A stretch of DNA of 64,000 nt from Prorocentrum cordatum (GCA_963575745.1 CAUYUJ010000002.1:2170001-2234000), one strand, 5' to 3'. Shown: positions 6,849-63,044, counted from the stretch's first letter. A program made the numbers and translations. Notes: a model not told the origin generated them from the letters alone.

Positions 6849-8139
6849 GCGCTCCTTCGCCAGGACGCCACTGCGAGAGAGGCGGCGGCGCGACGTCCAA
6901 GGGGTCGGTCGGTGCCTGCGGCAATGAAGGCTCCGAGGAGCTACCCCGCTCGGAGACCGCCAGGGCGGTCCGCGAGGCTGGCCCCGCCGACCTGCATCGA
7001 CAGGAGTGGGCACCAGGACCAGGACGCCCTGCGCCCTAGAACAAGGACAGGGCACATCATTAGCGCTACAAGACCACGGCTTCGGCGTCTTTCGCACTTC
7101 CGACTTGGAGGGCGCCATCAAGTCGCGGCTCACGCACGATGCGGACATGGACGCGACTCACCTCATCCTCGATTACTTTCCCAAGTTGCGCGCCAGGGTC
7201 AAGAACAGCACCAGGGTGTTAGTGATTTTTGGCCGGCAGCCAGCAGGGCCACAAGTGGAAACAACCAGCACCATGGCAGATGTTCGACAATCACGCGTTC
7301 CATGCCAGTACGCATCAGGCTTGCCACAAGCCTTTGGCCCCAGAGGCCAGACACATCAGGGCAGTCTGCATGGCGCTCACTCAGGTCCCCATCTACAGCC
7401 AGCTGCGCCGATGCAACATCAAACTGGAGGAGCACATCGACGACTAGACGATCATCAACCGACGAGTGCATTTGGCCCTGAGATGTGCCGCGAAGAATTG
7501 CGATTCACACCCTACTGCAGTCGCACTCCAAGCAGCAAGGTCGCATCGAGGAAAGTACGCTTTCAACGAGGCACGACGGCAGTTTGTCAACCAGACTCGA
7601 ACACATCTTCGAGTCCAATGTCAGAACGCAAGCACGACACCCGGCAGCACACCAACGACCACGCGCAAAAAGGCACCTTCCAGTCCTATAGCAGAACGCA
7701 AGCACGACACCCAGCAACACGCCCAGGACCGCGCGCACGCGAACACCTCGAACACCTTATAAGCACGAACAACCAGAGGCGTCCGGTGACTGCGCCACCA
7801 GCGCCTGCCCAGCGGCAGAGCGCATACGCTAGAAGGCGAAGATAAGGAGGACCATGCGCTCAGGGCACGCAAGCAGGTCGTCGAGGACCACTACGACGAC
7901 TGCGGTTCCGACCTCAGTGGTCTGGCCTCTTGCCTTCTTTGGCGACTTCGGTTGCGACGACGGGCGCGAAGAGGACGACCTCTATGGCAACCTTACCGCA
8001 GGTCTGCCCACGCGGCGGTTCCGAGGCTCGTAGACCAGGTTTTCACCGCCAAACGGCCAGCGTGCAATCATCGCAGTCCACCGAGCTCGACACCATCCAC
8101 CACTTCCTTCCCGACCTTGTTGTATTCGGCTACGGCGTC

Positions 8140-13755: not shown

Positions 13756-15537
13756 AAATTATTGTGGCGAAGGACCCAAACATGAGCAATTGTTCGTAAC
13801 GCGTCGTGGGTGCCGCTTTCGGTGGGGCTCCCTATGGGGCCACGAAACGCTGCCTTGGGTGGGGGAGCCGCATGCGAACTGCGCCACTGGGGCGGGCCTT
13901 CGGTGGAGCTCCCCATGGGGCCACGAAGCGCTGCCCTGGGTGGGGGAACCGCATGCGAGAGCGAACCGTCTCGGGGGCCTTCGGTGGAGTTCTCAATGGG
14001 GCCACGAAGCGCTGCCGTGGGTGGTGGAACCGCGTGCGAACTGCGCCACTGGGGCCTTCGATGGAGCTCCGTATGGGGTCACGAAGCGCTGCCCTGGGTG
14101 GGGGAACCGCATGCGAGAGCAGCCATTGGGGCCTTCGGTGGAGCTCCCCATGGGGCCACGAAGCGCTGCCCTGGGTGGGGGAACCGCATGCGAAAACAGC
14201 CGCTGGGGCCTTCGGTGGAGCTCCCTATGGAGCCACGAAGCGCTGCCCTGGGTGGGGGAACCGCATGCGAGAGCAGCCACTGGGGACTTCGGTGGAGCTC
14301 ACCCTGGGGCCACGAAGCGCTGCCCAGGGTGGGGGAACCGCATGCGAACTGCGCCACTGTTGCCTTCGGTAGAATTCCTTATGGGGCCACGAAACGCTGC
14401 CCTGGGTGGGGGAACCGCATGCGAAAGCAGCCACTGGGGCCTTCGGTGGAGCTCCCTATGGTGCCACGAAGCGCTGCCCTGGGTCGGGGAACCGCATGCA
14501 AGAGCAGCCACTGGGGCCTTCGGTGGAGCTCCCAATGGGGCCACGAAGCGCTGCCCTGTGTGGGGGAACCGCATGCGAGAGCAGCCACTGGGGCCTTCGG
14601 TGGAGCCCCCTGTGGGGCCACGAAACGCGAAACGCTGCCCTGGGTAGGGGAAACCGCATGCGAGAGCAGCCACTGGGGCCTTCGGTGGAGCCCCCTATGG
14701 GGCCACGAAACGCTGCCCTGGGCTTCGGTGGAGCTCCCCATGTGGCCACGAAGCGGTGCCCTGGGTGGGGGAACCGCGTGCGAGAGCAGCCACTGGGGCC
14801 TTCGGTGGAGCTCCCTATGGGGCCACGAAGCGCTGCCCTGGGTGGGGGAACCGCATGCGAGAGCAGCCACTGGGGCCTTCGGTGGAGCTCCCCATGGGGC
14901 CACGAAGCGCTGCCCTGGGTGGGGGAACCGCATGCGAGAGCAGCCACTGGGGCCTTCGGTGGAGCCCCCTATGGAGCCACGAAGAGTTGCCCTGGGTGGG
15001 GAACCGCATGCGAGAGCAGCCACTGGGGCCTTCGGTGGAGCTCCCCATGGGGCCACGAAGAGTTGCCCTGGGTGGGGAAACCGCATGCGAGAGCAGCCAC
15101 TGGGGCCGTCGGTGGAGCTTCCCATGGGGCCACGAAGAGTTGCCCTGGGTGGGGGAACCGCATGCGAACTGCGCCACTGGTGCCTTCGGTGGAACTCCTT
15201 ATGTGGCCACGAAGCGCTGCCCTGGGTGGGGGAACCGCATGCGAGAGCAGCCACTGGGGCCTTCGGTGGAGCTCCCCATGGGGCCACGAAGCGCTGCCCT
15301 GGGTGGGGGAACCGCATGCGAGAGCAACCGCTGGGGCCTTTGGTGGAGCTCCCTATGGGGCTACGGAACGTGTGAGAGGTGTCCCTATGTGGCTACGAAG
15401 CGTGTGAGAGGTGTGCCGAGAACACAGGCAAGGAGGGGGGAGGGAGGAGGGGGAGGAGGAGGAAGGAAGGAGGTGGGACGCGGGGCGCTGTCTCTTCAAA
15501 ACGAGGACCCAACACCACAGGATGGTTGGGGAAAAAA
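13756..15537 (-). mobile_element. Helentron/DINE-1-like non-autonomous element with ~20 x 77-bp tandem repeats, copy A
   Basis: On the + strand: AAATT..GGCGAAGGACCCAA head, 77-bp array, GGA-rich microsatellite, TCTCTTCAAAACGAGGACCCAACACCACAGGATGGTTGGG-AAAA end; it interrupts the 85-bp repeat at an A-rich site. Confidence 0.75.
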
Positions 15538-18285: not shown

Positions 18286-20869
18286 ACTTGTGGACATGCG
18301 GGGGTAACCAGAGAACACAGAGCGGATCGGCCCACGGCAGGGATTTAAAATCGAGGGAATCAAATATCGAGGGAGGGAGAATCACCCCGACCACCATATC
18401 TTGAGTAGGCCCGAAGGTCAGAGAGCGCCTTTCTCAGCAGGTCCCAACAAGGACGTCAAGGTGGCTCAACGCCTTGCCGATTAAGCCGACGAAGATGTGC
18501 AACGCCCATCTCTCGCGTTTGCCCAGCGGCACCGTGCATCCACGAAACGGCCCTGCCACTGCTCGCTTCCGCCCCTGGCACGTTTGCTGCGGGCCACGGT
18601 TCTGTGGGCTGGGCACCGTACTGGTGTGTGCCCCAGCCTGTAGAGAAAATGCATCAGTACAAACGTTTCGAGGTCGGCGCGGAGTTCTGGGGTCGGCAGT
18701 GGACCTCCCACAGCACAGACGTTTCACCGCGAGCTGTTTTGTCGACGCTCCCTGCTGGGCCCGGGGTCGGCCTCCAGAAGCCGAAGGCGCCGAAAGGCCT
18801 CAGGCTCGGCTTGTTCGAGCCTCTGCATGTCTGGGCCGCCTCCTGGCCGCTCCGGCCCGCTCTTCGCGGAACTCTTCAGCGTCCGAGCGCTCCCCCCTCC
18901 TTTTCCCCCCGCGCGGCCGCCCTCGTCTTGTTCCTTCCCGCTTGCACGCTGGACACTTATCGCCCTTCGGTTGCCCCGAACAGCCACACGGTGGAGCGGG
19001 TTGCCTCTGCCTCGCCGCCGACGGGAAAAATGTCTGGGCCCCCCTCGCCACGTTTTTCCTCCCCTCCCTCCTCCTCCTTTTCCTCCTCCTCCTCCTCCTC
19101 CTCCTCCTCCTCCTCCTCCTCCTCCATCGCTTCCTCCTCCTCCTCCTCCTCCTCCTCCTCCTCCTCCTCCTCCTCCTCCTCCATCGCTTCCTCCTCCTCC
19201 TCCTCCTGCTCCTCCTCCTCCTCCTGTCCCCGCTTCCCCCGCCTCGCGGGGAGGTCCTGCTGAGGCTCTCCGCCGCGGGCAGCGACGAGCCGCTGGCGGT
19301 CCTCGGCGCCAGGACTGGCGGGGGCGCCCCGCGCACCTCTCTGGGCGCTGGCGGGCCGAGGCGCCAGGGTCGGCGCCCGGCACGCCGCGGACTCGGAGAT
19401 GTCCTGCCTGGGATGTGCTTTTGGGTCTTGTCTAGAATCGTTTTCCCCTCCCCCCCTCTTCCCCGTGCTCAAGGAAGACCTGGGCAGCGGTGGTCAGACG
19501 ATATTCAAAGTTTCTTCGAACCAAGACCTTTCCACGGAGCATGGTACCTTTCGAAAGAGACCGGGAAGCATTTGAATCTGATCTCGTGCAGAGGAACGAC
19601 ATGTGAGGGTTGCGGCCCTCGCGCCTTGCCCCGTGCGGGTCGGCCTCTTTGGCCGGACACGGCGCGCCTGCTTGCTTGCTTGCCTGCCTTCCCCCCGTGC
19701 GACCGCCCTCGTCTTCCCCCCCCCATTCGTGCACGCGGGACACCTAGCCTTTCGGTTGCCCCGAATGTCCACACGCTGGAGCGGACTGCCTCGGTCTCGC
19801 CGCCGACGGAAAAAGTGTCTGCGTTCTTCGGGCCCCGGGGCCGTCACAGAACGACTCGGGGATGAAACACTGGCCCTCGGGAGCGGGTCGAAAGGGCTGG
19901 GGGCCCGAGGCCGGTGAATCTCCCAGGGGGGACGCGGCCCGGGGCCCCAGGGCAGCTGCCCTTCCCCCCCAGGACCGGACCAGGGCCTCCAGGGGCCCCC
20001 TGGCCCTCGCCAAGACAGCGTCCCCAGACATGCGACGTCCTGATTTTTTCAGGACGGGGTTCCTGGAAGTCCCGACCCGTTCCCTGGGACTGGCTTTTCA
20101 TCCTGAGTAAGGGCCCCCCGAGGCCGAAAATTGCCAAAAACCTCCCGTCCTGATTTTTTGACGACGCGATCATGTATGGGCTCTAGACCGCCCTCCACGC
20201 CGCCAGACGGTTCAGGTGGCTGCAAGATAGTGACACAGGCCCCCGAAGAGGCGCCCCAGACGCTGCTGAGACGGCTCTCGCGAGGCCCTCGCGAGGCCCC
20301 CAGGCGGCTTCCAAGAGATCCTCAGGAGGCCAAAAACCGTGAGAAACCATTGGAAAACGCAGTTTTTGGAAGGCTCTCGAAGGCGCCCACCTGGCCTCGG
20401 AGAGCCCCGTGAGAAGCCCCAGGGAGCCCCACGACGGCCCCAACAGCGCCCAACAGCCTCTGACGACGGCCCCCAGAGAGGCCCCGGACGGCCCAGACAG
20501 TCCCCAGAATGGCTCCCGCGGGCGTGCCTTGGGCCTCGAGCGCCCTGGGAGAGCCCAAGACGCCTCCAAGAACGCCCAGAGGCCCGATTATGGCGCCTGA
20601 GCGGGCCTGACAGATGCCCTCAAGAGGCGCCCGAGCAGCTCCGCAGCGCTCCCCGCAGCCAAAAAATGTTGAAAAACCAACGGGGAACTTGTTGTTTGGA
20701 AGATCTCCCTTGTTCGTTTCCAAAGAGCATCTCTCACCTTTAGAAGGCGCCCCCACGGGCTCCCAGAGCCCGACGAGCAGCCCAAAGAGTCCCAAGACAG
20801 CCCCAACGACGCCAACGAGCTTCCGAGGATGGCTCCGAGAGGGCCCCTGGACGGCTCAGAGAGTCCCCC

Positions 20870-21763
20870 AGTGGTGGTGTTCGCATGCGGTTCCCACACC
20901 CAGTACAACGCTTCGTGGCCCCATGGGGAGCTCCACCGAAGGCCTCAGTGGCGGTGCTCACATATGATTCCCGCACCCAGTACAGCGCTTCGCGGCCCCA
21001 TGAGAAGCTCCACCGAAGGCCTCAGTGGCGATGTTCGGCATCTCTCACATCGCGCCCCCACGGGCTCCAAGAGCCTGACGAGCAGCCCAAAGAGTCCCAA
21101 GACAGCGCCAACGGCGTAAAAGAGCCTCCGAAGATGGCTCCGAGAGAGCCCCTGGACGGCTCAGAGAGTCCCCCAGTGGTGGTGTTCGCATGCAGTTCCC
21201 CCACCCAGTACAACGCTTCGTGGCCCCATGGGGAGCTCCACCGAAGGCCTCAGTGGCGGTGCTCGCATGCGATTCCCGCACCCAGTACAGCGCTTCGTGG
21301 CCCCATGGAAATCAGTCGCGGTGTTCGCATGCGCTTCCCCCAACCAGTACAGTGCTTCGTGGCCCCAGAGGGAGCCCCACAGAAGGCCTCAGTGGCGGTC
21401 TCGCATCCGTCACCCCCACCCAGTACAGCGCTTCGTGGCCCATAGGAAGCTCAACTGAAGGCCCCAGTGATGGTATTCGCATGGGTCTCCCCCACTCAGT
21501 ACAGCGCTTCGTGGGCCCAATAGGGAGCTCCACCGAAGGCCCCAGTAACGGCCACGCCCCTTCGCGGCGCACCCCTCATACGCTTCGCGGCCCCATTGTG
21601 GTCTCCACCTATCGTCCCAGTGTGAGCGCCCACATGGCGGCCCCGCCCCATATCGGCACACCCTTCGCATTCTCCATGGCCCCATTAGGAGATCCCCCGA
21701 AGGCGACAACTGTAACGACAGCACTCATAACTGCATATGGTGGGGTCCTTCGCCCGGATAATT
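20870..21763 (+). mobile_element. Diverged inverted copy of the 77-bp-array element, partial
   Basis: Reverse-complement units (GCTTCGTGGCCCCATGGGGAGCTCCACCGAAGGCC) and terminus GCATATGGTGGGGTCCTTCGCCCGGATAATTT. Confidence 0.7.
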
Positions 21764-50517: not shown

Positions 50518-51860
50518 AAAATTAGCCTGGCGAAGGACCCAACCATATGCAACTGTGAATACCGCAAGTGTGAATATCGTTTTCGGCGGCGCTGCCTCTG
50601 GGCAGTGGAGACGCATGCGAACACCCCCACTGGGACCTTCGGTGGAGTTCCCCATGGGGCTACGAAGCGCTGCCCTGGGTGGGGGAACCGCATGCAGGCA
50701 GCCCCACTGGGGCCTTCGGTGGAGCTCCCTGTGGGGCCACGAAACGCTGCCCTGGGTGGGGGAACCGCATGCGGGCACCCCCACTGGGGCCTACGGTGGA
50801 GCTCCCTCTGGGGCTACGAAACGCTGCCCTGGGTGGGGGAACCGCATGAGGGCAGCCCCACTGGGGCCTACGGTGGAGCTCCCTCTGGGGCTACGAAACG
50901 CTGCCCTGGGTGGGGGAACCGCATGTGGACACCCCCACTGGGGCCTTCGGTGGAGCTCCCTCTGGGGCTACGAAACGCTGCCCTGGGTGGGGGAACCGCA
51001 TGTGGACACCCCCACTGGGGCCTTCGGTGGAGCTCCCTCTGGGGCTACGAAACGCTGCGTGGGGGAACCGCATGTGGACACCCCCACTGGGGCCTTCGGT
51101 GGAGCTCCCTATGGGGCTACGAAACGCTGCCCTGGGTGGGGGAACCGCATGCGAACACCCCCACTGGGGCCTTCGGTGGAGCTCCCTATGGGGCTACGAA
51201 ACGCTGCCCTGGGTGGGGGAACCGCATGCGAACACCCCCACTGGGGCCTTCGGTGGAGCTCCCTATGGGGCCACGAAACGCTGCCCTTGGTGGGGGAACC
51301 GCATGCGAACACCCCCACTGGGGCCTTCGGTGGAGCTCCCTATGGGGCTACGAAACGCTGCCCTGGGTGGGGGAACCGCATGTGGACACCCCCACTGGGG
51401 CCTTCGGTGGAGCTCCCTATGGGGCCACGAAACGCTGCCCTGGGTGGGGGAACGCATGTGGAACACCCCCACTGGGGCCTTCGGTGGAGCTCCCTATGGG
51501 GCCACGAAACGCTGCCCTGGGTGGGGGAACCGCATGCGAACACCCCCACTGGGGCCTTCGGTGGAGCTCCCTATGGGGCCACGAAACGCTGCCCTGGGTG
51601 GGGGAACCGCATGCGAACACCCCCACTGGGGCCTTCGGTGGAGCTCCCTATGGGGCCACGAAACGCTGCCCTGGGTGGGGGAACCGCATGCGAACACCCC
51701 CACTGGGGCCTTCGGTGGAGCTCCCTATGGGGCTACGAAACGCGTGAGAGGTGTGCCGAGAGCAGAGGCAAGGAGGGGGAGGAGGGAGGAGGAGAGGAAG
51801 GAGAGGAACGCGGGGCACCGTCTCTTCAAAACGAGGACCCAACACCACAGGATGGTTGGG
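50518..51860 (-). mobile_element. Helentron/DINE-1-like element copy B1 (~15 x 77-bp repeats)
   Basis: Subterminal inverted repeats CCCAACCAT (50538-50546) / ATGGTTGGG (51852-51860); terminal hairpin CCCAAC..GTTGGG; near-perfect 77-bp period. Confidence 0.8.
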
Positions 51861-52476
51861 AAATTAGCCTGCGAAGGACCCAACCATATGCAACTGTGAA
51901 TACCGCAAGTCTGAATATCGTTTTCGGCGGCGCCGCCTCTGGGCAGTGGAGACGCATGCGAACACCCCCACTGGGACCTTCGGTGGAGCTCCCTATGGGG
52001 CTACGAAACGCTGCCCTGGGTGGGGGAACCGCATGCAGGCAGCCCCACTGGGGCCTTCGGTGGAGCTCCCTGTGGGGCCACGAAACGCTGCCCTGGGTGG
52101 GGGAACCGCATGCGGGCACCCCCACTGGGGCCCCGGTGGAGCCCCTGGGTCACGAAACCTGACTGGTGGGGAACCGCATGCGGGACACCCCCACTTGGGC
52201 CTTCGGTGAGCCCCCTTCTGGGGCTACGAAACGCTGCCCTGGGTGGGGGAACCGCATGTGGACACCCCCACTGGGGCCTTCGGTGGAGCTCCCTATGGGG
52301 CTACGAAACGCTGCCCTGGGTGGGGGAACCGCATGTGGACACCCCCACTGGGGCCTTCGGTGGAGCTCCCTCTGGGGCTACGAAACGTTGCCCTGGGTGG
52401 GGGAACCGCATGTGGACACCCCCACTGGGGCCTTCGGTGGAGCTCCCTATGGGGCTACGAAACGCTGCCCTGGGTG

Positions 52477-52583
52477 TGTGAATGCCATCCAGATTTTAAT
52501 CCCTAGGTTCAGCGTTTGGAGAGTCCGACCGTTTCGCGTTCTGGCTCAAGGGAAAAACATCCCAGGGGCGATCTGCTGCCACA
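52477..52583 (+). repeat. 5' LTR (107 bp)
   Basis: TGTGAATGCC...CTGCCACA; identical to 62122-62228. Confidence 0.97.
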
Positions 52584-52585
52584 GT

Positions 52586-52602
52586 TGGTAGCGGAGCGGG
52601 GT
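52586..52602 (+). promoter_or_regulatory. Primer binding site, probably tRNA-iMet
   Basis: TGGTAGCGGAGCGGGGT 2 nt after the LTR; TGGTAGC matches the complement of eukaryotic initiator tRNA 3' ends. Confidence 0.8.
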
Positions 52603-52722
52603 GACCCCGCTTCGGGCCCATGGGAGCTCCGGCGCGGCGCTGAGGAGGCGCTGTCCAGGAAGCTCTCGAGCGCCCGGAGCGAGGACCTCGCTTCCAGGTC
52701 CGACTGGCGTGGAGATCCACGG

Positions 52723-55700
52723 ATGACGACGCGAGACGGCAAGGAGAAAGAGTCCCCAGCCGAGGCTCCAGCGAGCCCAGCCGCAGGGGACACGCTGGCA
52801 GCGGTCACACCGGCGCAGCTGAAAGAGATGATTGTGGGAGTAGTCCGCGAGACTATGGGAGCAGCATCATCGTCTCAGACGCCGGTGGCCGCGGCCACGA
52901 CAGCAGCAGAAGATCCCTGGTTACACGGCTGGACCGACAGCAGTGCCAAGGGAGATCGCCAGGAGGACCCGTGGAACTGGTCCGACGCTGCCGGCTGGCG
53001 CTGGGGAGGCGCTGAACGGCAGCAGGGGGGCGATCAAGGCGACAGCACGAACCAGGCCTGGGAGCACTGGACCGGCAGCAGCAGGGGCCATTTTGGCACC
53101 AGTGCCGGCGACTGGTGGGGATGGGCCGCCGGTGGCGGCAAAGGCGACTACTCTGATCCGCCGCCTTGGCCTGGTTTCGGACACTATCGACAGTGGAGCC
53201 GTGCTATCCGCAGATGGAGTCAGAATACCGACGTAGCGACATGGCGCCGGGCTGAAAAATTGTTCAAGCTCTTCGACTGGAACCTCCAGGCCAAGTTCGA
53301 GGATATACCCGAGAGTACGCTCAACAGCGCCTCGTGGCTGGAGGTCATCCTGCGCCGCATGGACACTATGGCTGGAGAGCGTGAGGGCGACGACCTACGA
53401 CGTGCTGGGCGCCGAGCCCTATATGAAGCAGCACGCGAGCCTCGAGAGACGCTGGTTCAGTATGTGATCCGCCGTGAGGCGCAGCTGACCGAGGCAGAGG
53501 GGCACGACATGTGGTTTAGCCCAAAGTTGAAGGGATTGCTTCTAGAGGAAGGCGCCGGATTGTCTGCTCAGGGTCAGCAAAATCTCAGAACCCTGACTCA
53601 CGGACGCCTGGACTACGATAGCGTGTCCTGGGCCCTCAGGCAGATGGACGCAACCAGTTCTGAGAGGCTTCTTCCAGGCCGTTCTGCAGGCACACTGTTA
53701 GCAGGTCCCGCGGCCGAAGAGCCCGGTGACGACGAGCGTGCCACAGCAGCATCTCAGCCTCCCTCCTCCACTCCCTCGTTCCCCGCTGGTAGGTTCGAAG
53801 GTGGTGAGGAGACAGGCGACGGCTCCACGGACCAGGAGGAAGTTGACGACGACTTCGAGGACGAAGCTGTCCTTCTCGAGGAGCTCGAGGATCTCGACCT
53901 CTACGAGGATCAGCTGGACGCCGCCCTCGAGGCTTTCGCGGCCCGCCCGACGGGACGCTCCTGGAAGGAGAACAAGGATCTCAAGCGCGCTGCCAAGCGC
54001 GACCGAGAATACTACGGAGGACGACGCCCAGCAGCCGGACCACGAGGAGCTACCGACAAACCCAAGGTGGAGCGCCCGTCTCCACCGTCCAAGGGTGCAG
54101 GTCGAGGCGACGGCCGTCGAGGAGATCGGCTCAGGCGCAGACCCACGCTCACCCTGGAGCAGAAGATGAAGGTGACCCGCTGTAGGACGCGCAACCAAAA
54201 GGGCCACTGGAGTCGGGAGTGCCCGAAGAACGCCGGAGCAGACCGACGCATGGCGGCATATGCATTCAACGGCATGGCATCGACCGACAAGGTGCTCAGT
54301 CCGGAGGCGATGGAGATCTGGAGGACCGTTCATCGAGAGATCAAGGAGGATGACACCTTCCTGGCATCGCTTCCGTGCCAAGGGCTGGTAGACCCTGGGG
54401 CAGGGAGTGATCTCGTCGGCGTCCAGGCTCTGAATCGAGAGTCACAAGCACTAGCAGAGCACGGTCTCAGATATGTTGAAGTTCCAGCCGAGCATAGACG
54501 ACATGTCGCCGCCCACGGCGTTGGTGGGCCGGCCAAGGTAGTAGCCAGCATCCTCTTTCCACTCTGTCTTTTCGGAGTTCTCGGAATAATCGAGACAGCA
54601 GTGCTAGCCGATGACGTCCCCCACATCATCAGCGTCAATCTTTTAGATTTTTTGGGCTGTGTTCTGGACCTACCCGAGAATACGTTGGCGTCCAGTAGGA
54701 TCGGAGAGACGACAAAGCTCACGAAGCTAGGATCAGGCCATAGAATGGCCGACATCGTGAGGACCCTTCGGCCAGGAACCTCTGTACCAGCTGGAGCGCT
54801 TCAGAGATGGCCGTTCCTCACAGCCAATTCGTTCGAATATTCTGGCGGCCCGGTGCAGCGCATGTCAGACACGGGTGTCGTGGGGCACTACATCTATCTC
54901 ATCATCTCATGTGCCCTTGGTCTGAGTATCGCGTTAAGAAGAACCCGCTCCCATAGAAGGGGCCCCTGGAACTCCGATTTCAAGGCCCACCTCAAGGACC
55001 CAGAGGCCCAGCAGACCACAGATCACGAGGACCCCGAAGACCTCCAGGGGGACGCTTGCGAGGAGTACACAAGGATAGCCGACACGGAGAACGTCCTCGG
55101 CTTCACAGGCCACTTAAGGATATACTCGACGGAGTTCGAGAGCAGTTGCGAGGACCTCTCGAGGACAGAGCAGTGCCAGGGTCAGTCCCGGGCTCAGCAG
55201 GGCCTAGCAGAACCAAATCGGGGCTTAGCGGAGTTCCGTCACACTAAGGTGATCCGGAGGGAGCTCGTCAAGGCTGAGGCCATAACTCGGACCCTGTCGA
55301 GAAACAGGATGTCACTCCATAGAAGCAGTATTCCTCAATGGGTCACGGCTCTTGCCTCCGTAGCCTTTCTCGGCTCGAAGCTTTCCAGCATCGACCACCC
55401 CGAGAGTATTGGTTCTCTTTCCAGTCAAGATCAGAGACAGGACAATGCCTCTAGTCCTGGCGACGCTGATGTTTCTCAGCACCACGGGCGTGGTCCGCGG
55501 AGGACCAAAGAAAGCTCCACCCGACCTCCCGTCAAAGGAGGAACGGGCCCGCCAGCTCCGAGAGCAGATTCGTCGGGTCCAGCAAGAATACGAGGAGCTA
55601 ACCAACGGGATGGAGAACGAGACGGGAGCGTATCAGCCGGAGACGGGAGCAGCCGCGGTCTCGAACCACTGGGTCGGCACCAGCAGCGGCAGCAGCTCGG

Positions 55701-58700
55701 GCGCAGCCGCAGCAGCGCCAGGGGCAGCAGCCGCGAGCTCAGGAGGTTGCGGACGGCCGAGCTGGCCTCAACAGCATCCGCAGATACAGAAGCCCATGCC
55801 GAAGGCATCGAAGGTTCCCTACAAGCCGCCTCCTCAGTGCGACCATCCCGCAGACCGGAGGCAGCCATACGGAAATCAGCACGGGCGAGGTTTCAAGTGC
55901 GGGCTGTGCGGCTACCGCCTGGAGTGGACGCCTCGGGAGCAGGAGGGCGGTGCTCCAGCCGAACGGCCCGAGTCGGCGGCTCAGGCAGCCCGTCGGGCCG
56001 CTGCCACGGCGGAGAAGACCATCCAGATGCTTCAGGAGAAAGAGGGTTTCGTCGACGGCGCAGCGACCCTCAACGCCGTGAACGGGATCTCGGCGATGAT
56101 GACGTCTCTCTCCCACCATCTTCAGAATCTACCCGAGGGACTGCAGCTACTGGCCAACATCCAGCCGGTCGTCGAGCAAATGCAGCAGCTGGTGGCATCC
56201 AATCAGATCGGCAGCAACAGCCAGCTGGAGGAGGGACTCAAGCAGGTGTACCAGTCGGTGGTCCACATCCAACGCATGCTAGGCGTCTTCGAGAATTTCG
56301 GGGAGTCCATCGACTCGATTGCCGATCAGTTGACCGCGATGCAGCTCGAGACAACGTCGATGCACCAGGCAGTCGATCACATGCTGAATCTTTTAGTGCA
56401 GGTAGCATCATCTGTCACCGCAATGGCGCATGCGATGAATCAGCACGCAATGGCCAGCTCCAGCAGCGGGAGCGGCTGGCAGAGTGGAGATCCGTGGACT
56501 CCCACGGCACCAGCCTGGACGGCGCCTCTAGCGCAGCCGCCGGCCAAGACGCCTCCTGCCAAGCCGTTCCCAGCTCAGGCGACGGAGATCTGTTCGATCC
56601 CAGAGGGTTCAGAGGAGGAGGACACGACCTCCTCCACTACCACATCGGTCGGCACGTGGGACTTGGTGTAGATCAGTCCCCTTGCCATTGCTACTCTCGC
56701 CACAGGGCGAGGGATTCCCAGTCACGACGCATGTGCGTCGCCGGCTCTTTTACTGCCGGCTCTTGCGAAAGAAAAGAAAGAGAGGAAGGCCCTCCAGAAC
56801 ACCAAGGGGGCCTCGGGAGCTTCCCTGTAGGTTTCCCAGTCTTTCGGGCCGAGTCGAACGGGGCCTACGCCACGGCTGGACGGGGCTCGAAAACCACGGA
56901 GGACGGCCTTCTCGAGAGTTGGATTGATGGTGATCTTTTTAACGACGATCACGAGTCGGCCTGGGGACCCAAGGTTCGGAGAGCTCTCGACAGGCAACTC
57001 GAGACCCACGGGTGCCCGTCCTCGGGAGCTTTCAGCGCGAGACAGGCCACCAAGGCCAAGACCTCGTTCATGGAGGTCTTCTCTCCCCCTCGTATAGCCC
57101 CCGAGGTGGAAAAGAGAGGGGGGCGTCTGGGTTCGAGTGCGAGTTTCGACAGGCTGACGGGATGGGACTCGGGGATCAAAGAACACGTTCGGCACCTCTG
57201 GAGGGAAATCAAGAAGAACGATCCCGAAACGATATGGCTTAGCTCTGAGTGCAAGGTCTTTTCCGCGATCAACAGGATCAATCGAGATCGCCGCGATCCC
57301 CAAAGGTGGCACCAGCAAGTCCTCGAGGGTCTCAGAGATCTCACGTTGTGCATGGAAATAGCTAAATATCAACACTCGAGAGGCAGGTTCTTTGTCTTTG
57401 AACATCCCCTGTACGCCAGCTCGTGGCACACTGAGGTCGTCCAGCTGATATCCTCTCTCCCCTCTGTCAGACGACTAAGGGTAGATATGTGCGCTTTCGA
57501 GCTACGGGTGGACGACCGTGGCCTCAACAAGAAGCCTACCGGTCTGCTGACAAACCATCCTAGGATCTTGTCTTTGTTGGACGGGAAGCTGTGCACAGGG
57601 GGCCACAGACACGCCATTCTTGAGGGAAGCCGTCAGACCTCCAGGGCTGCCGTTTACTCAAGTAAATTTGTGAGGACTGCCGCGAGAGCCATTGTTGAGC
57701 ACTGGAGCGGGTCTGACGAAAAGGTCAGGCCTACGTGGGCCCAGCTGGTTGACGAAAGCTTCCCTACGATAATGGCAGGAGAAGGTCTGGGAACCATCCC
57801 TGAGGAAGAGGAAGTCGGAGGAAGTGAAGCGAGCGATGGTGACGAACCCGAGACCAGGCCACAGCAAAACTCCAAGAGTGCCGAGATTCCAGACGAAGAA
57901 CCCAACGAGGACGAAAAGAGACTCCTGTATAAGATTCACGTGAACATGGGGCATCCCGACTCACGCAAATTTTGTCGGGTGCTCAGGGCTGGGGGAGTCA
58001 AAGCTCATTTAATCCGGTGGGTCCGCCATAAGTTCCAGTGTTCCGAGTGTGAAGAGAGGAGCAAGCAGGGCACGCACCGACGGGTTGCGCTGCCTCGCAC
58101 TTTTCGTTTCAACCACATAGTTGGTGTGGATCTCTTTTACCTGGAGTTCCTGGGCCAAGCGGTTCCTTTTCTTAATGTCGTCGACCACGGGTCGAACCTT
58201 CAGGTCTGCACCCGCGTGGCGGACGCCAGAGCGGCCACGGTGTGGTCGGGGTTTGTGCAGTCCTGGATTAGACCCCTCGGGGCTCCCCACCTTCTCATCT
58301 CGGATGGAGGCTCCGAGTTCGGGGGTCGTTTCGCCAGAGGACTGGAACACTGGGGGGTCAAGCACCATGTGTGTGACGCCGATTCTCCGTGGCAAAATGG
58401 GAGAGTCGAGCGCCACGGGGGATGGATAAAAGAACGTGCGCGCCAGGAAATTGACTCGGGTCCTGGGGCCCCGGTGTCGTTGGAGGAGCTGGATACCCTC
58501 GTGTACGAGCTGACTGCTCACAAGAACAGATTTTGGCACAGAGGGGGCTTTTCCCCGTTGCAGTTGGTCTTTGGGGAAAATCCCAGACTCCCACACGAGT
58601 TGCTCTCTGACGACGCCTCTGGTCTCCCGGGCTGGCAGGACCTGACTCGCAATCCAGCAGAGCTGGACGAAGCTGGCGCTGAGTTCTGCCGTGCTCAGGA

Positions 58701-61700
58701 AATCAGAGCGGCGGCCAGAAGGCTCGCTATGGAAGCCACGGCCAGAGAAAAGATCAGCAAGGCTTCCCGCGCCAGGAATCCCAACCCCAGGAGCTACACA
58801 CCTGGCCAGTGGGTGTACGTTTGGCGCCACATGGCGAGAGCCACTTCCCGGGCCGACAGTCTCGGAAGACGTCGAGACGGCTGGTGCGGTCCTGGGGTGG
58901 TGGTCCTGGCCGAGGGCGGAACCGTGTGGGTGGCCGTCCGGGCCCGGCTGTGGAAATGTTCGGCGGAACAGATCCGCCTCGCCAGCCCAGAAGAAGAGTA
59001 CGGTATACAGCTTGCCCAATCCCCGCAGTGGCAAGAACTGATGCGTCAGGCCCACACTCGGAGGGCCACGGCCGTCGACGTCCAGAGAGAAGGACCTCCT
59101 CCCGAAGACGCTTGGGACGATGCCATTCGGAGAGAGTTGGATTCGGGCCCTCAGCTCCCCGGGGCACCGTGTCCTCCCGTTCGAGAGGAAGTCCCTGCTC
59201 CAGAGACGCGACGTACCGACGGAACGCCCGATACCTCCGGTCCCCCTCCGACTCCCGGAGTGATCCCCCGACGCAGCCCCAGAGAGGCTCCGTCAGAGAA
59301 TGGATCCATGGAGGCGCAGGCGGGATCAGAGGTGACGAGGGTCCCGTCCACCGGAGGGCCCGAGGAAAGCTCAGGCAGATCGTCTCCCCACGGAGGCAGC
59401 GCATCTGGGCATGAAGTGAGGAGCGAAGAGGCTGAACCTACCCACACCCCTGCTCTCGCTCCCTCTGAGTCTCCCGACATTCCCCTTGACGAGGGGCGAG
59501 AAATCGAGGATCTTGAAAGAGATCACCCGGAGTCACGGCTGGAATCGCCTCAGGAACATGCGCGAGGGCCGGTCACCCAGGCTCCGAGACCGAGAAGACT
59601 CGCCCAGCCCCAGGACGTTCCCGCTTGCATTTTAAGATCTCGCAGCGGCAGAGCTGCCAGCGAGCCTCCCGACAAAAGGGTGAGGATTGAACCACCCCCT
59701 GGCCTCTCGGAACCATCCACCTCTCGTCCCGTTGATCCTTCCTCCTCCTCCTCCTCCGCCACCAGAGTTCAGGAGATTCAGGGCGGCACCGAGCCACGCC
59801 GAAGTGTGAGTGAGATAGTCAAGGCTCTGGAAGCGGGACGCCGACCAGAACGTTCGAGGTCTCCGCCCAGAGAGCCAGAGAGGAGAGAGGAGCAGGAGGA
59901 GGAGGATTTCTTTTTGGTACCGGCTGGAGAGGCCGGGTCTGGTCTTCAGGCCAAGACCAGGGAGCAGCTTGGAGAGACCTACGCTGCCAGTAGAGGAGGA
60001 GAGGTCTCGTTTAAAAACCTCACTCCGGCCGAGCGGGCCAAGTTTCAGGCATCAGACGATAAGGAGTGGAAGTCCATGGTCGAGTCGGGAGCGGTGGAGG
60101 TCCTGGGGCCGAAGGAGGCGGAAGTCGTGCGGAAGGAATGTCCGGACCGGATCATCTCTAGCAGGATGGTCCGCAGGTGGAAGCCGGTAGAAGGTATTTT
60201 CAAAGAACCCGAAGCAAAGTCCCGTTGGTGCGTACACGGTCACAAGGATCCCGACGCCGGATCTCTGCAGGTGTATTCCCCGACACCGCAAACGTCAAGC
60301 ATCACCTTGTTCGTGCAGGTTCTCATGAACCTTGGCATGAGGGCTGATATCGCCGACGTGAAAAATGCTTTTTGCCAATCCGACAAGATGGTGAGGTCCC
60401 AGGGAGAGATCTTCGTTGAACCGTGTGATGGCGTCCACCTTCCGGCAGGCTCCATCATACGCCTCAAGGTTAACGTGTACGGCCTCGACGATGCCCCAGT
60501 AGCATGGAGACGAACTGTCGTGTCATTTCTAGAACAACAAGGGTTTTCTCGGACACTACTGGAACCGTGTTGGTGGTGTCGTTATGGGTCGAAAGGGGAG
60601 TTGCTAAATATGATCCTGCTGGAGGTCGATGACTTCTTCATTGGGAGCCTCACGGAAGAGAGTCGGAAGTGGTTTCGAGAGCGCCTTGAATCAAGATTCC
60701 GTTTCGGAAAATACAGGGACTGTCACGCAGGGCCAGTTGACTACGCTGGCAGACGGGTGACTATAGGCCCGAACCGGGCCACTATCGACATGGAAAAATA
60801 CATTATGGAAGAACTTCGGCCTATCTCTCTTGCCAAAGGTAGGCTTGCTGCCCGGGACACTCCTTTGGAAGACAGCGAGTTCAAGGCACTACGCTCTCTT
60901 GTTTTTAAGTTTAACTGGATAGGACGGGAAGCTCGTCCGGAGGCTTCAGGACCAGCAAGCATTCTCGCTAGTCGTCTCAAGGCAGCCACCACGGGAGACA
61001 TCAGTCTGGCCAACAAGCTTGTCAAGCATCTCAGGGCCACCGCTTCCCGTGGTATCATCGTGTGGAGGCTCGATCCCGAACGTATGTCCTTCGCCTCGTT
61101 CTCAGATGCGGGGGGCATAGGAGGTCCTAGTTTAGACGGCGAACGGGGTCTCCCAGAGGATCCCACACAGGGCGCTTGGATGGTATTGGCCTGCGACAAG
61201 AGCATCGCCGAGAATCGTTGCGTCAAGGCGTCAATTCTAGGATGGCGCATCTCCAAGTTGCGCCGTAAAGTACCATCCACTCTGGCTGGCGAGACACAAG
61301 CTCTGGCCGCAGCTATTGCTGAGGTAGAATACCTCCAGATACTGTATCGTGATGTGGTTTTCAGAGATGTGACTATACGAGATCAGCACAGATGCTCAGG
61401 CCCATTTACAACAGTACTACGTCGTGAGTGCCGTTTGGGCGCTCGAGAGGGCCAGATTCATATCGTAGACGCAAAATCTATATACGATACTATGCTCAAG
61501 GAGGGTAACGCCAGTGCGAAAGACCGCCGTACGGCGATCGATTTAGCTATCATATGTGAGGCTCTGGAACAGGCATCAGGACGTATCCGCTGGATACCCC
61601 ACGGGAGGATGCCCGTAGATGCGCTCACTAAAGACGACGTGACCAAGTGCAATGCTGCACTGTTCGATTTGATGACCAGCGGGAGGATAGTATTGGTGGA

Positions 61701-61968
61701 CGAGGGGGTCGAGGTGGACAGGAGGCGGGAGGACCCAGGCCTCAAGAACAGATCCCAGGCGGCCTCCCGGAAGCTCCTGGACAATCAGCTCATCAGTGTC
61801 ACGTATTCCCAGGAGGATCGTCCACATCCAGGTCCCGGAGTACGACCAGTCTTCGGTGGTGGTAGTGTGGTTGGTGGTCTTTCCTCCTCCTCTTCCTTTC
61901 CCTCCTGCACTCCTCCCTGTCTGTTTCAGCCGGCTAGTGTCAGCCTCTTCGATTTCAATTTTCAGTGA
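52723..61968 (+). CDS. Gag-PR-[linker]-MTase-like-IN-RT-RNase H polyprotein (3,081 aa from the first ATG)
   Basis: Zn knuckle CRTRNQKGHWSREC (54181); protease LVDPGA (D at 54391); IN H-H-CSEC, GVDLF, SDGGSEF, WQNGRVERH; RT KSRWCVHG, DVKNAF, YGLDDAP, EVDDF; RNase H FSDAG, STLAGE, VDAKS, DALTK. Confidence 0.95.
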   Translation: MTTRDGKEKESPAEAPASPAAGDTLAAVTPAQLKEMIVGVVRETMGAASSSQTPVAAATTAAEDPWLHGWTDSSAKGDRQEDPWNWSDAAGWRWGGAERQQGGDQGDSTNQAWEHWTGSSRGHFGTSAGDWWGWAAGGGKGDYSDPPPWPGFGHYRQWSRAIRRWSQNTDVATWRRAEKLFKLFDWNLQAKFEDIPESTLNSASWLEVILRRMDTMAGEREGDDLRRAGRRALYEAAREPRETLVQYVIRREAQLTEAEGHDMWFSPKLKGLLLEEGAGLSAQGQQNLRTLTHGRLDYDSVSWALRQMDATSSERLLPGRSAGTLLAGPAAEEPGDDERATAASQPPSSTPSFPAGRFEGGEETGDGSTDQEEVDDDFEDEAVLLEELEDLDLYEDQLDAALEAFAARPTGRSWKENKDLKRAAKRDREYYGGRRPAAGPRGATDKPKVERPSPPSKGAGRGDGRRGDRLRRRPTLTLEQKMKVTRCRTRNQKGHWSRECPKNAGADRRMAAYAFNGMASTDKVLSPEAMEIWRTVHREIKEDDTFLASLPCQGLVDPGAGSDLVGVQALNRESQALAEHGLRYVEVPAEHRRHVAAHGVGGPAKVVASILFPLCLFGVLGIIETAVLADDVPHIISVNLLDFLGCVLDLPENTLASSRIGETTKLTKLGSGHRMADIVRTLRPGTSVPAGALQRWPFLTANSFEYSGGPVQRMSDTGVVGHYIYLIISCALGLSIALRRTRSHRRGPWNSDFKAHLKDPEAQQTTDHEDPEDLQGDACEEYTRIADTENVLGFTGHLRIYSTEFESSCEDLSRTEQCQGQSRAQQGLAEPNRGLAEFRHTKVIRRELVKAEAITRTLSRNRMSLHRSSIPQWVTALASVAFLGSKLSSIDHPESIGSLSSQDQRQDNASSPGDADVSQHHGRGPRRTKESSTRPPVKGGTGPPAPRADSSGPARIRGANQRDGERDGSVSAGDGSSRGLEPLGRHQQRQQLGRSRSSARGSSRELRRLRTAELASTASADTEAHAEGIEGSLQAASSVRPSRRPEAAIRKSARARFQVRAVRLPPGVDASGAGGRCSSRTARVGGSGSPSGRCHGGEDHPDASGERGFRRRRSDPQRRERDLGDDDVSLPPSSESTRGTAATGQHPAGRRANAAAGGIQSDRQQQPAGGGTQAGVPVGGPHPTHARRLREFRGVHRLDCRSVDRDAARDNVDAPGSRSHAESFSAGSIICHRNGACDESARNGQLQQRERLAEWRSVDSHGTSLDGASSAAAGQDASCQAVPSSGDGDLFDPRGFRGGGHDLLHYHIGRHVGLGVDQSPCHCYSRHRARDSQSRRMCVAGSFTAGSCERKEREEGPPEHQGGLGSFPVGFPVFRAESNGAYATAGRGSKTTEDGLLESWIDGDLFNDDHESAWGPKVRRALDRQLETHGCPSSGAFSARQATKAKTSFMEVFSPPRIAPEVEKRGGRLGSSASFDRLTGWDSGIKEHVRHLWREIKKNDPETIWLSSECKVFSAINRINRDRRDPQRWHQQVLEGLRDLTLCMEIAKYQHSRGRFFVFEHPLYASSWHTEVVQLISSLPSVRRLRVDMCAFELRVDDRGLNKKPTGLLTNHPRILSLLDGKLCTGGHRHAILEGSRQTSRAAVYSSKFVRTAARAIVEHWSGSDEKVRPTWAQLVDESFPTIMAGEGLGTIPEEEEVGGSEASDGDEPETRPQQNSKSAEIPDEEPNEDEKRLLYKIHVNMGHPDSRKFCRVLRAGGVKAHLIRWVRHKFQCSECEERSKQGTHRRVALPRTFRFNHIVGVDLFYLEFLGQAVPFLNVVDHGSNLQVCTRVADARAATVWSGFVQSWIRPLGAPHLLISDGGSEFGGRFARGLEHWGVKHHVCDADSPWQNGRVERHGGWIKERARQEIDSGPGAPVSLEELDTLVYELTAHKNRFWHRGGFSPLQLVFGENPRLPHELLSDDASGLPGWQDLTRNPAELDEAGAEFCRAQEIRAAARRLAMEATAREKISKASRARNPNPRSYTPGQWVYVWRHMARATSRADSLGRRRDGWCGPGVVVLAEGGTVWVAVRARLWKCSAEQIRLASPEEEYGIQLAQSPQWQELMRQAHTRRATAVDVQREGPPPEDAWDDAIRRELDSGPQLPGAPCPPVREEVPAPETRRTDGTPDTSGPPPTPGVIPRRSPREAPSENGSMEAQAGSEVTRVPSTGGPEESSGRSSPHGGSASGHEVRSEEAEPTHTPALAPSESPDIPLDEGREIEDLERDHPESRLESPQEHARGPVTQAPRPRRLAQPQDVPACILRSRSGRAASEPPDKRVRIEPPPGLSEPSTSRPVDPSSSSSSATRVQEIQGGTEPRRSVSEIVKALEAGRRPERSRSPPREPERREEQEEEDFFLVPAGEAGSGLQAKTREQLGETYAASRGGEVSFKNLTPAERAKFQASDDKEWKSMVESGAVEVLGPKEAEVVRKECPDRIISSRMVRRWKPVEGIFKEPEAKSRWCVHGHKDPDAGSLQVYSPTPQTSSITLFVQVLMNLGMRADIADVKNAFCQSDKMVRSQGEIFVEPCDGVHLPAGSIIRLKVNVYGLDDAPVAWRRTVVSFLEQQGFSRTLLEPCWWCRYGSKGELLNMILLEVDDFFIGSLTEESRKWFRERLESRFRFGKYRDCHAGPVDYAGRRVTIGPNRATIDMEKYIMEELRPISLAKGRLAARDTPLEDSEFKALRSLVFKFNWIGREARPEASGPASILASRLKAATTGDISLANKLVKHLRATASRGIIVWRLDPERMSFASFSDAGGIGGPSLDGERGLPEDPTQGAWMVLACDKSIAENRCVKASILGWRISKLRRKVPSTLAGETQALAAAIAEVEYLQILYRDVVFRDVTIRDQHRCSGPFTTVLRRECRLGAREGQIHIVDAKSIYDTMLKEGNASAKDRRTAIDLAIICEALEQASGRIRWIPHGRMPVDALTKDDVTKCNAALFDLMTSGRIVLVDEGVEVDRRREDPGLKNRSQAASRKLLDNQLISVTYSQEDRPHPGPGVRPVFGGGSVVGGLSSSSSFPSCTPPCLFQPASVSLFDFNFQ
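55445..56671 (+). CDS. Overprinted 408-aa ORF in the +1 frame (hydrophobic N-terminus, coiled coils, Cys/His Zn motif)
   Basis: Frame open 55364-56671; MPLVLATLMFLSTTGVVRG; EERARQLREQIRRVQQEYEEL; CDHP..YGNQHGRGFKCGLCG; long amphipathic helical region. The polyprotein frame here is R/G/S-rich low complexity. Confidence 0.75.
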   Translation: MPLVLATLMFLSTTGVVRGGPKKAPPDLPSKEERARQLREQIRRVQQEYEELTNGMENETGAYQPETGAAAVSNHWVGTSSGSSSGAAAAAPGAAAASSGGCGRPSWPQQHPQIQKPMPKASKVPYKPPPQCDHPADRRQPYGNQHGRGFKCGLCGYRLEWTPREQEGGAPAERPESAAQAARRAAATAEKTIQMLQEKEGFVDGAATLNAVNGISAMMTSLSHHLQNLPEGLQLLANIQPVVEQMQQLVASNQIGSNSQLEEGLKQVYQSVVHIQRMLGVFENFGESIDSIADQLTAMQLETTSMHQAVDHMLNLLVQVASSVTAMAHAMNQHAMASSSSGSGWQSGDPWTPTAPAWTAPLAQPPAKTPPAKPFPAQATEICSIPEGSEEEDTTSSTTTSVGTWDLV

Positions 61969-62105
61969 TTGATCTTTGAACCATCCGCCCAGAGACAGGC
62001 AAGGAGACCTTGATGAATTCAGGTGCTCTCTGTCCCAAGGACAGGTTGTCGGACACAGGTTCGACCATAGTTATTCTCACTGTTTCTAGAAGTTGCTGAA
62101 CCTAC

Positions 62106-62121
62106 AAGAAAGTTTGGGGCA
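62106..62121 (+). promoter_or_regulatory. Polypurine-tract-like sequence
   Basis: AAGAAAGTTTGGGGCA immediately before the 3' LTR; imperfect. Confidence 0.55.
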
Positions 62122-62228
62122 TGTGAATGCCATCCAGATTTTAATCCCTAGGTTCAGCGTTTGGAGAGTCCGACCGTTTCGCGTTCTGGCTCAAGGGAAA
62201 AACATCCCAGGGGCGATCTGCTGCCACA
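62122..62228 (+). repeat. 3' LTR (107 bp)
   Basis: Identical to the 5' LTR. Confidence 0.97.
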
Positions 62229-63044
62229 GGTGGGGGAACCGCATGTGGACACCCCCTCCGGGGCCTTCGGTGGAGCTCCCTCTGGGGCTACGAAACGCTG
62301 CCCTGGGTGGGGGAACCGCATGCGGACACCCCCACTGGGGCCTTCGGTGGAGCTCCCTCTGGGGCTACGAAACGCTGCCCTGGGTGGGGGAACCGCATGT
62401 GGACACCCCCACTGGGGGTGGGGCGAAACGCTGCCCTGGGTGGGGGAACCGCATGTGGACACCCCCACTGGGGCCTTCGGTGGAGCTCCCTATGGGGCCA
62501 CGAAACGCTGCCCTGGGTGGGGGAACCGCATGTGGACACCCCCACTGGGGCCTTCGGTGGAGCTCCCTATGGGGCACGAAACGCTGCCCTGGGTGGGGGA
62601 ACCGCATGTGGACACCCCCACTGGGGCCTTCGGTGGAGCTCCCTATGGGGCTACGAAACGCTGCCCTGGGTGGGGGAACCGCATGTGGACACCCCCACTG
62701 GGGCCTTCGGTGGAGCTCCCTATGGGGCCACGAAACGCTGCCCTGGGTGGGGGAACCGCATGTGGACACCCCCACTGGGGCCTTCGGTGGAGCTCCATAT
62801 GGGGCTACGAAACGCGTGAGAGGTGTGCCGAGAGCAGAGGCAAGGAGGGGGAGGAGGGAGGAGGGGGAGGAGGAAGGAGAGGAACGCGGGGCACCGTCTC
62901 TTCAAAACGAGGACCCAACACCACAGGATGGTTGGGAAAAAACACGAGACGACGTGCACGCGCGCGTTGTCGCGCGCGCGTGCGGGAATCCCTCTAAGCC
63001 TTAATTCGGCTTCGCTTGGATTTGAAAAGAACCGAGCCCCCCGA

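Follow-up and report, generated by a model that had tools for sequence, protein, structure and literature searches.

A Probable Conserved Overlapping Gene Pair within a Ty1/Copia-Type Retrotransposon of Prorocentrum cordatum

In retroviruses, errantiviruses, and sireviruses, env and env-like genes are located 3' of pol, with contact at most at its end. Where gag and pol overlap by frameshifting, in Ty1, Ty3, and retroviruses, the shared stretch is tens of nucleotides long and the consecutive products are fused; the accessory-gene overlaps of deltaretroviruses are short. Long, fully nested genes on the same strand are textbook features of a few compact viruses and not of long terminal repeat (LTR) retrotransposons, which have no tight limit on genome size. 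Here we describe an arrangement of this kind in a window of 64,000 nucleotides from Prorocentrum cordatum (the whole stretch of DNA analyzed; GCA_963575745.1, CAUYUJ010000002.1:2170001-2234000). Positions are counted from the first letter of the window, and features lie on the plus strand unless stated otherwise. A complete Ty1/Copia-type LTR retrotransposon occupies 52477..62228, and within its polyprotein open reading frame (ORF), at 55364..56671, the +1 frame encodes a second protein, here called X. We put the probability at about 0.8 that the two frames form a conserved overlapping gene pair and that the element around them is intact and was inserted very recently.

The nearest analogue is the PreS/S gene of hepadnaviruses, best known from hepatitis B virus. 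According to Lauber et al. (2017, PMC5604429), it exceeds 1.1 kb, lies wholly inside the P gene, and is shifted one nucleotide downstream, the third codon position of P being the second of S. The same paper also states that the N-terminal part of PreS/S overlaps a flexible spacer between two enzyme domains, that both frames avoid stops, and that the non-enveloped sister viruses of hepadnaviruses lack the spacer; it mentions the overprinted accessory genes of deltaretroviruses as well. For Symbiodinium, the consulted text of Chen et al. (2017, PMC5776459) lists reverse transcriptase (RT), integrase (IN), RNase H, and LTRs in Ty1-copia-like elements (SmTCL). No nested gene was described for Copia elements in the open-access literature searched.

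Open Frames and Coding Signature across the Overlap

The dual-coding region lies between the protease (PR) and a DNA methyltransferase (DNMT)-like domain, wholly within the polyprotein ORF. A first-pass annotation, made by a model from the DNA alone, had proposed that the polyprotein frame (frame 0) stays open here as an R/G/S-rich stretch and that the +1 frame encodes a 408-aa protein from an ATG at 55445, and both were found as described. Frame 0 contains no stop and consists of 42% R+G+S compared with 21% for X, and L+I+V+M+F account for 12% and 21%, respectively. The +1 frame opens just after a TAG at 55361-55363, remains open for 27 codons before its first ATG, and ends at a TAG at 56669-56671, which gives a nested gene of 55445..56671. 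The third position of each X codon is the first position of a polyprotein codon.

Synonymous codons were permuted in 3000 replicates per test, with the protein of one frame held fixed. When the X protein was fixed, 8.5 stops were expected in frame 0 and none was observed, and not one permutation (0/3000) was stop-free. When the frame-0 protein was fixed, 5.0 stops were expected in the +1 frame and again none was observed; 2-4 of 3000 reshuffles were stop-free (P 0.0007-0.0013). Both frames are thus open beyond what composition and the protein of the other frame predict. The third frame, a built-in control, carried 13 stops compared with 12.1 expected and so behaves as chance predicts. Stop avoidance is specific to frame 0. 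The way in which stops are avoided is visible in the codon choice of X: of 84 X codons that start with AA, AG, or GA, none comes after a codon ending in T, compared with 49 of 335 other codons (Fisher p 8e-6), and outside X the polyprotein frame showed no such ban (87/727). Frame 0 is held open by selection across X.

The first-pass annotation had cautioned that coding sequence rich in GC at third codon positions (GC3) leaves shifted frames poor in stops, and a GC-rich, GC3-biased sequence might in principle yield the +1 ORF as a chance by-product. The element has a GC content of 56-67%, and long shifted or antisense ORFs do occur in it, such as a 348-aa antisense ORF at 58009-59055. This caution nevertheless failed as an explanation. 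All of the other 420-codon windows of the polyprotein (63/63) carried at least six stops in the equivalent shifted frames, the third frame of the overlap behaved likewise, and the open +1 frame had a P of about 0.001 under reshuffling. Together with the 25 homologues and the confident predicted fold of X described below, these results already refute an origin by chance, to which we assign a negligible probability.

Base composition at codon positions also distinguished the two frames. At 55990-56350, frame 0 had GC contents of 0.72-0.85, 0.58-0.67, and 0.25-0.40 at the first, second, and third positions (GC1, GC2, and GC3), whereas the +1 frame, with a GC2 of about 0.3 and a GC3 of about 0.8, shows the signature of the element's ordinary domains. 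Because codon-position GC switches register there, the amino-acid coding signature lies in the +1 frame. Since this signature sits in X, it suggests that X is the older coding sequence and that the spacer frame was opened through it.

Contigs of the Logan collection from other sequencing runs bridged 54963-55630, 55233-55679, 55601-56001, and 56378-56681 without gaps, although the best-matching run among them may be the source of the window itself. An assembly indel was considered as the origin of the frame shift and was rejected, because the bridging contigs show no indel at the borders.

The X Protein Family and the Arrangement in Relatives

All features of X named by the first-pass annotation were present. 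The protein begins with a hydrophobic, signal-peptide-like segment (55445..55495, MPLVLATLMFLSTTGVV) with a Kyte-Doolittle value of 1.39. This value is 1.66-1.71 in P0004 and P0013, and the X frame of P0102 has MCCGSPWLVAAVSLPVLSG at this place; a Met directly precedes the hydrophobic segment in all three. A coiled-coil-like helix follows at 55535..55630 (residues 43-74 of P0002; AlphaFold2 pLDDT 93-95). The Zn-ribbon-like motif C-x-H-P...YGNQHGxGxKCxxCG...W (55838..55927) is predicted to form three strands (pLDDT 87-96) and is conserved in P0006, P0008, P0019, P0026, and P0027. Residues 190-352 (55976..56464) are predicted to form a helical bundle (pLDDT 70-89), which includes a conserved hydrophobic helix at 56381-56437 with a hydropathy of 1.28 here and up to 1.73 in homologues. 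The Pro-rich, acidic C-terminal tail (56465..56668) ends in WDLV. The AlphaFold2 model was built with a 24-row alignment, A1.

An exhaustive HMMER search of 1.84 billion representatives with X returned 25 homologues with E<=1e-3 (15 with E<=1e-10 and 4 with E<=1e-30), with identities of 28-100% and lengths of 65-420 aa, most being fragments. The family shares the motif C-x-H-P...Y-G-N-Q-x-G-x-G-x-K-C-x-x-C-G...W-x-P, the helical core AAxAARxAA...LNTVN...PEG...EEGLQQI...IRR...FGE, and the hydrophobic helix M-x-V-Q-I-G...A-H. The W-x-L-V end is shared with P0007 (SWDLV; 82% identical) and P0025 (LWGLV; 28%), and P0010 and P0022 terminate at a similar distance past the bundle. Because a coding signature, 25 homologues, and a confident predicted fold coincide in the same frame, X is a real, conserved protein frame. 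The same three lines of evidence bear out the earlier proposal that the nested frame carries the amino-acid constraint, and frame 0 is a disordered, R/G/S-rich, permissive spacer.

The AlphaFold2 fold was confident, and in the structure comparison that the first-pass annotation had called for it matched nothing more specific than generic four-helix bundles, with Foldseek at E>=0.024 and VIA at Z<=12.3, a range in which VIA advises caution for helical bundles. A Pfam scan of X gave nothing above cut-offs and only unrelated sub-threshold matches at E>=0.011, a near-length word-index search gave no match, the protein atlas gave no usable match, and X alone found nothing among viral and metagenome contigs.

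A degenerate pattern of the Zn motif matched 23 metagenome loci, and the motif was truly carried by two of them, L007 and L014 (1.0 and 1.5 kb), in which no polyprotein domains were found. Both contigs (L007, 288-905, minus strand; L014, 413-1132, plus strand) encode a coiled-coil protein ending in a YGNQHGRGIKCxKCG motif, and an R/G-rich ORF overlaps the 3' part of this protein in the same +1 register (118-552 in L007 and 883-1287 in L014). These loci may represent a related overlap in another type of element.

The family also bears on whether X could be the decaying relic of a captured or once in-frame gene, with only the polyprotein frame functional. Some members are indeed broken: the frame of P0012 changes after residue 40, and the CxxC part of the motif is missing from P0010. 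However, the copy described here, with its identical LTRs, has an intact X, conservation of the family extends to members of only 28-38% identity, the several indels between P0007 and the X of the window all preserve the frame, a +1 frame free of stops has a P of about 0.001 when frame 0 is fixed, and the codon signature still resides in X. A relic is hardly credible on this evidence.

The polyprotein itself had 107 long homologues, which were at most 39% identical over the DNMT-like/IN region and whose labels include Symbiodinium, Breviolum (symbB), and Durusdinium. Each X residue was projected to the residue encoded by the preceding wobble base plus the first two bases of the X codon, and profiles of these shadows were searched against the 107 polyproteins and P0001 together with 108 reversed decoys. 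The P0102-type shadow profile matched 14 of the 107 under default filters, a number that rose to 26 under --nobias (E 6e-35 to 7e-5), and every match was located after PR and before the DNMT-like or IN domain. No decoy was matched (0/108), nor was anything matched with the other-frame projection. As a positive control, a shadow profile from 20 divergent rows of A1, leaving out P0002, P0003, P0004, and P0007 (the subfamily of the window itself), found the spacer of the window (residues 1058-1315) at E about 2e-20. The frame-0 linkers of 31-38 homologues were mutually detectable without decoys; a jackhmmer search started from the spacer of the window found only itself. These protein shadows indicate that the dual-coding arrangement is probably conserved across the clade, and this breadth, with the frame-0-specific stop avoidance, upheld the view of the first-pass annotation that the polyprotein frame serves as a linker here.

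In five of the 107 polyprotein models (P0102, P0110, P0057, P0082, and P0076), an X segment is read in frame after PR. The first-pass annotation had named two compensating frameshifts in other copies as a sign that X is simply part of the polyprotein. On this rival reading, X is brought into frame in the mature mRNA by two introns or, in this lineage, by two compensating frameshifts, and the shifted stretch of frame 0 goes untranslated; intron-bearing LTR retrotransposons, the Ogre elements, do exist. All five are NCBI eukaryotic annotations, however, which can bridge frames with predicted introns. P0102 and P0106, which are 71-79% identical, align in frame up to P0102:770 and resume at P0102:1123. 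Between these points 58 of 63 positions (92%) in the P0102 X are codon-compatible, on a single diagonal, with the linker that P0106 reads in frame 0, as are 149 of 193 over the whole domain, against a background of 0.24-0.26 and a best control of 0.49. Because the match of the P0102 X is to the +1 shadow of the P0106 linker and not to in-frame sequence, the two models are two readings of similar DNA, the uninterrupted one having X in the +1 frame. The in-frame models thus speak only superficially for this rival. In addition, a frame 0 that went untranslated would not be expected to be free of stops, and 14-26 other models read straight through it. The X homologues share a common C-terminus and a Met followed by a hydrophobic start, and the bridging contigs are free of indels. 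We see little likelihood that X is a plain polyprotein domain.

A long linker was usual in the 68 homologues with both PR and the DNMT-like domain. In 62 of these the linker was 447-944 aa long with an R+G+S fraction of 0.22-0.32, and it was 90-110 aa in three and about 200 aa in another three. Because most relatives have long linkers and few have short ones, the long spacer with X looks like an acquired module. The distant relatives P0113, P0115, and P0118 have 90-110 aa between PR and the DNMT-like domain, with an R+G+S fraction of 0.12-0.16, and may represent the ancestral state, in which both spacer and X were lacking. When the frame-0 spacer was compared with shorter proteins, a single match was obtained, P0135 (75 aa), which is 90% identical to residues 932-1004; it is labelled Pyramimonas sp. 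The polyprotein alignment A3 found nothing among viral and prokaryote genome contigs.

The Host Element and Possible Expression of X

The element is 9752 bp long, is present as a single copy in the window, and has been inserted into a 77-nt satellite array, which is found on both of its flanks. Such arrays cover 50519-52476, 62233-62815, 13815-15445, and 20866-21546. The 107-nt LTRs (52477..52583 and 62122..62228) are direct TG...CA repeats with TGTG and CACA at their ends, differ at 0 of 107 positions, and are flanked by a 4-bp GGTG duplication (52473-52476 and 62229-62232). Because the LTRs are identical, the duplication is present, and the element has a single long ORF, this copy is very recently inserted and apparently intact. 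LTRs of 107 nt are unusually short for a 9.7-kb element. The sequence TGGTAGCGGAGC at 52586-52597, after the 5' LTR, is a putative primer binding site (PBS), judged by its likeness to the initiator methionine tRNA (tRNA-iMet) PBS of Copia, and a purine-rich tract lies at about 62104-62119, before the 3' LTR.

The polyprotein ORF (52516..61968) has 3150 codons from stop to stop and its first ATG at 52723. A Gag CCHC zinc knuckle (54181..54222) reads CxxxxxxGHWxxxC, although its Pfam zf-CCHC match (E 0.062) is under the cut-off. In the aspartic protease region (54268..54690; DPGAGSDL at 54391-54414), residues D626, G628, and A629 are invariant in A3, and the protease was also matched by BLASTP in homologues. 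A strongly hydrophobic frame-0 segment with a Kyte-Doolittle value of 1.88 follows PR at 54877-54933. The IN core (58111..58389; Pfam rve, residues 1866-1958, E 4.8e-6) scored 27.2 bits against a curated cut-off of 32.6, though IN is conserved in the 107 homologues. The Copia-type RT (60148..60720; Pfam RVT_2, residues 2545-2735, E 9.9e-15) was above the cut-off. The direct LTRs with their duplication and the position of IN before an RVT_2-type RT place the element in Ty1/Copia. Copia elements usually carry one gag-pol ORF without an internal extra gene, whereas the single ORF here holds a nested +1 gene; this is a departure from the usual Copia plan and does not argue against Copia ancestry. 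The IN-RT linker at 58800-59960 is a second long low-complexity stretch with atypical codon-position GC (GC1 above GC3), and this region also holds a 201-aa +2-frame ORF (58809-59414) and the 348-aa antisense ORF mentioned above. Elsewhere in the window, an ORF at 6453-7481 matched dUTPase (Pfam PF00692, E 1e-6, above the cut-off) and may be part of another mobile element.

Downstream of the overlap, 57061..57708 encodes the DNMT-like domain, with a putative C5 DNA methyltransferase fold (AlphaFold2 pLDDT 82.7). Its best Foldseek matches were DNMT3A/3B/3L, DNMT1, and MET1 (E 3e-4, TM 0.35-0.46), and Pfam gave no match. The domain is kept in 68 of the 107 polyprotein homologues. A conserved S-P-E-C (SSEC in this element) occupies the place at which the P-C motif of DNMTs would be expected. 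It may be an unrecognised, divergent DNMT. Symbiodinium Copia elements are stated to be without a DNMT domain in the part of PMC5890265 consulted.

In the conserved overlapping gene pair, frame 0 is selected mainly to remain stop-free, so that ribosomes reach the DNMT-like, IN, RT, and RNase H domains, and we propose that X would be translated from its own ATG at 55445 on a subgenomic RNA. Such an RNA could be made, like retroviral env mRNAs, by cis-splicing or spliced-leader trans-splicing at a pyrimidine-AG site. A pyrimidine-rich tract ending in AG, ttctctttccag (55412..55423), lies 21 nt upstream of the X ATG and is a candidate acceptor judged from its sequence. Both LTRs contain TCTGGCTCAAG (52540-52550 and 62185-62195), preceded by ACCGT..., with two exact matches compared with 0.08 expected; we take it to resemble the 3' half of the dinoflagellate spliced leader. 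Its presence in the LTRs hints that the host trans-splices, and a trans-spliced RNA template may have left this remnant fixed in the LTR. A search with a spliced-leader motif yielded two matches with 2 mismatches each, a result also obtained in 1 of 100 shuffles.

An alternative is that X has no messenger of its own and that a programmed +1 frameshift near 55364-55445 yields a truncated Gag-PR-X product ending at 56671, which would set the Gag-PR:Pol ratio. Ty1 and Ty3 use +1 frameshifting, and the X frame is already open 27 codons before its ATG. Just upstream, frame 0 (55309-55377) encodes the signal-like MSLHRSSIPQWVTALASVAFLGS, and P0135 starts at this Met. On the other hand, the Met and hydrophobic segment of X are conserved in three divergent X lineages, and neither a structure nor a slippery site was identified. 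The slippery heptamers of Ty1 (CTTAGGC) and Ty3 (GCGAGTT) are both absent from 55290-55530, other frameshift signals not having been searched for. We consider frameshifting quite unlikely.

Once made from its own ATG, X would be expected to pass into the secretory or membrane pathway and to serve the element as an accessory or structural protein. Two features, the signal-like start and the hydrophobic helix, suggest secretory entry, although the evidence is thin. A bolder version casts X as an envelope-like or egress protein, secreted or in the membrane, that is translated from a subgenomic RNA with a trans-spliced leader. This clade of protist Copia elements would then have arrived independently at the hepadnavirus solution, in which a structural gene is concealed within the spacer of the replicase. 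We regard this version as unlikely; if true, it would make these elements candidates for retrovirus-like agents of dinoflagellates and other algae that are infectious or move from cell to cell or horizontally.

Several results weigh against the interpretation of the region as a conserved gene pair with an independently expressed X. The +1 openness in the 14-26 relatives was read from protein models and not from DNA, and the shadow-positive database models were taken to be uninterrupted ORFs from their protein sequences. The five of 107 models with X in frame after PR could mean, if their introns are real, that X is also made in a polyprotein isoform. Codon-position conservation in the linkers of relatives leans in the expected direction (p1/p2 kappa 0.61 compared with 0.79-1.00) in an alignment of only 20% identity, and is therefore only mildly supportive; the fraction of substitutions at position 1 only did not discriminate either (0.34 compared with 0.34-0.44 in ordinary domains). 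Among close copies, the ten listed substitutions in X showed no third-position excess, a pattern expected for neutral decay after insertion, which makes these copies uninformative. The predicted fold of X says little of its function. The membrane reading is weak, as the hydrophobic helix near the C-terminus has a hydropathy of no more than 1.28 here and is missing from P0019/P0027-type relatives (maximum 0.73, in P0027). Finally, of the sequencing runs in which the region is listed as present, none is recorded as RNA.

Significance and Comparison with Known Systems

We rate this locus as a nested-gene organisation of a known kind that was not anticipated in elements of this class. Conservation of a 1.2-kb dual-coding region throughout a Copia clade would mean that these elements, which are abundant in Symbiodiniaceae-type genomes, encode an unannotated conserved protein. 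Current annotations miss X or, as in the five in-frame models, appear to splice it wrongly into the polyprotein. X stands as a concrete candidate protein with an accessory or structural role in retroelements that have been reported, in the title of PMC5776459, to be heat-activated in a coral symbiont. The projection of a profile into the neighbouring frame, followed by a protein database search, found the overlap without the DNA of the relatives and is a reusable method.

X shares with env-like genes its status as an extra ORF, a signal-like hydrophobic start, long helices, and an expected need for a subgenomic spliced RNA. It differs from them in being nested in the middle of the polyprotein, and a clear membrane anchor is not seen in all X lineages. 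Like the gag-pol and accessory-gene overlaps, it involves two same-strand frames used in a retroelement, but it is 1.2 kb long and completely internal, and frame 0 runs 5.3 kb further. The SmTCL elements likewise have LTRs and IN upstream of RT and RNase H; a nested ORF and a DNMT-like domain are not mentioned in the consulted text of PMC5776459, and that of a second Symbiodinium retrotransposon paper is likewise silent on a nested gene.

X and hepadnavirus PreS/S show no sequence homology in the Pfam scan, so X is an analogue of that gene and not a member of its family. The host element here is an LTR retrotransposon with IN, whereas a hepadnavirus is a protein-primed virus, and X overlaps the spacer only and no catalytic domain. 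An envelope role is a feature of PreS/S, while X is known from its sequence and predicted structure. In addition, it is the nested frame here, and not the replicase frame, that looks like the older coding sequence. The likeness to the overlap described in PMC5604429 is nonetheless close: in both cases an ORF is nested in the replicase of a reverse-transcribing element, in the same register and over a disordered spacer, and the relatives of this element with short linkers (3 of 68 at 90-110 aa and 3 at about 200 aa) parallel the spacer-less viruses. The X/spacer overlap would offer a second, naturally arisen instance of the P/PreS-S problem, independent of the first and again with the code for a folded protein lying across a disordered spacer, and a comparison of both cases may tell how such overlaps arise.

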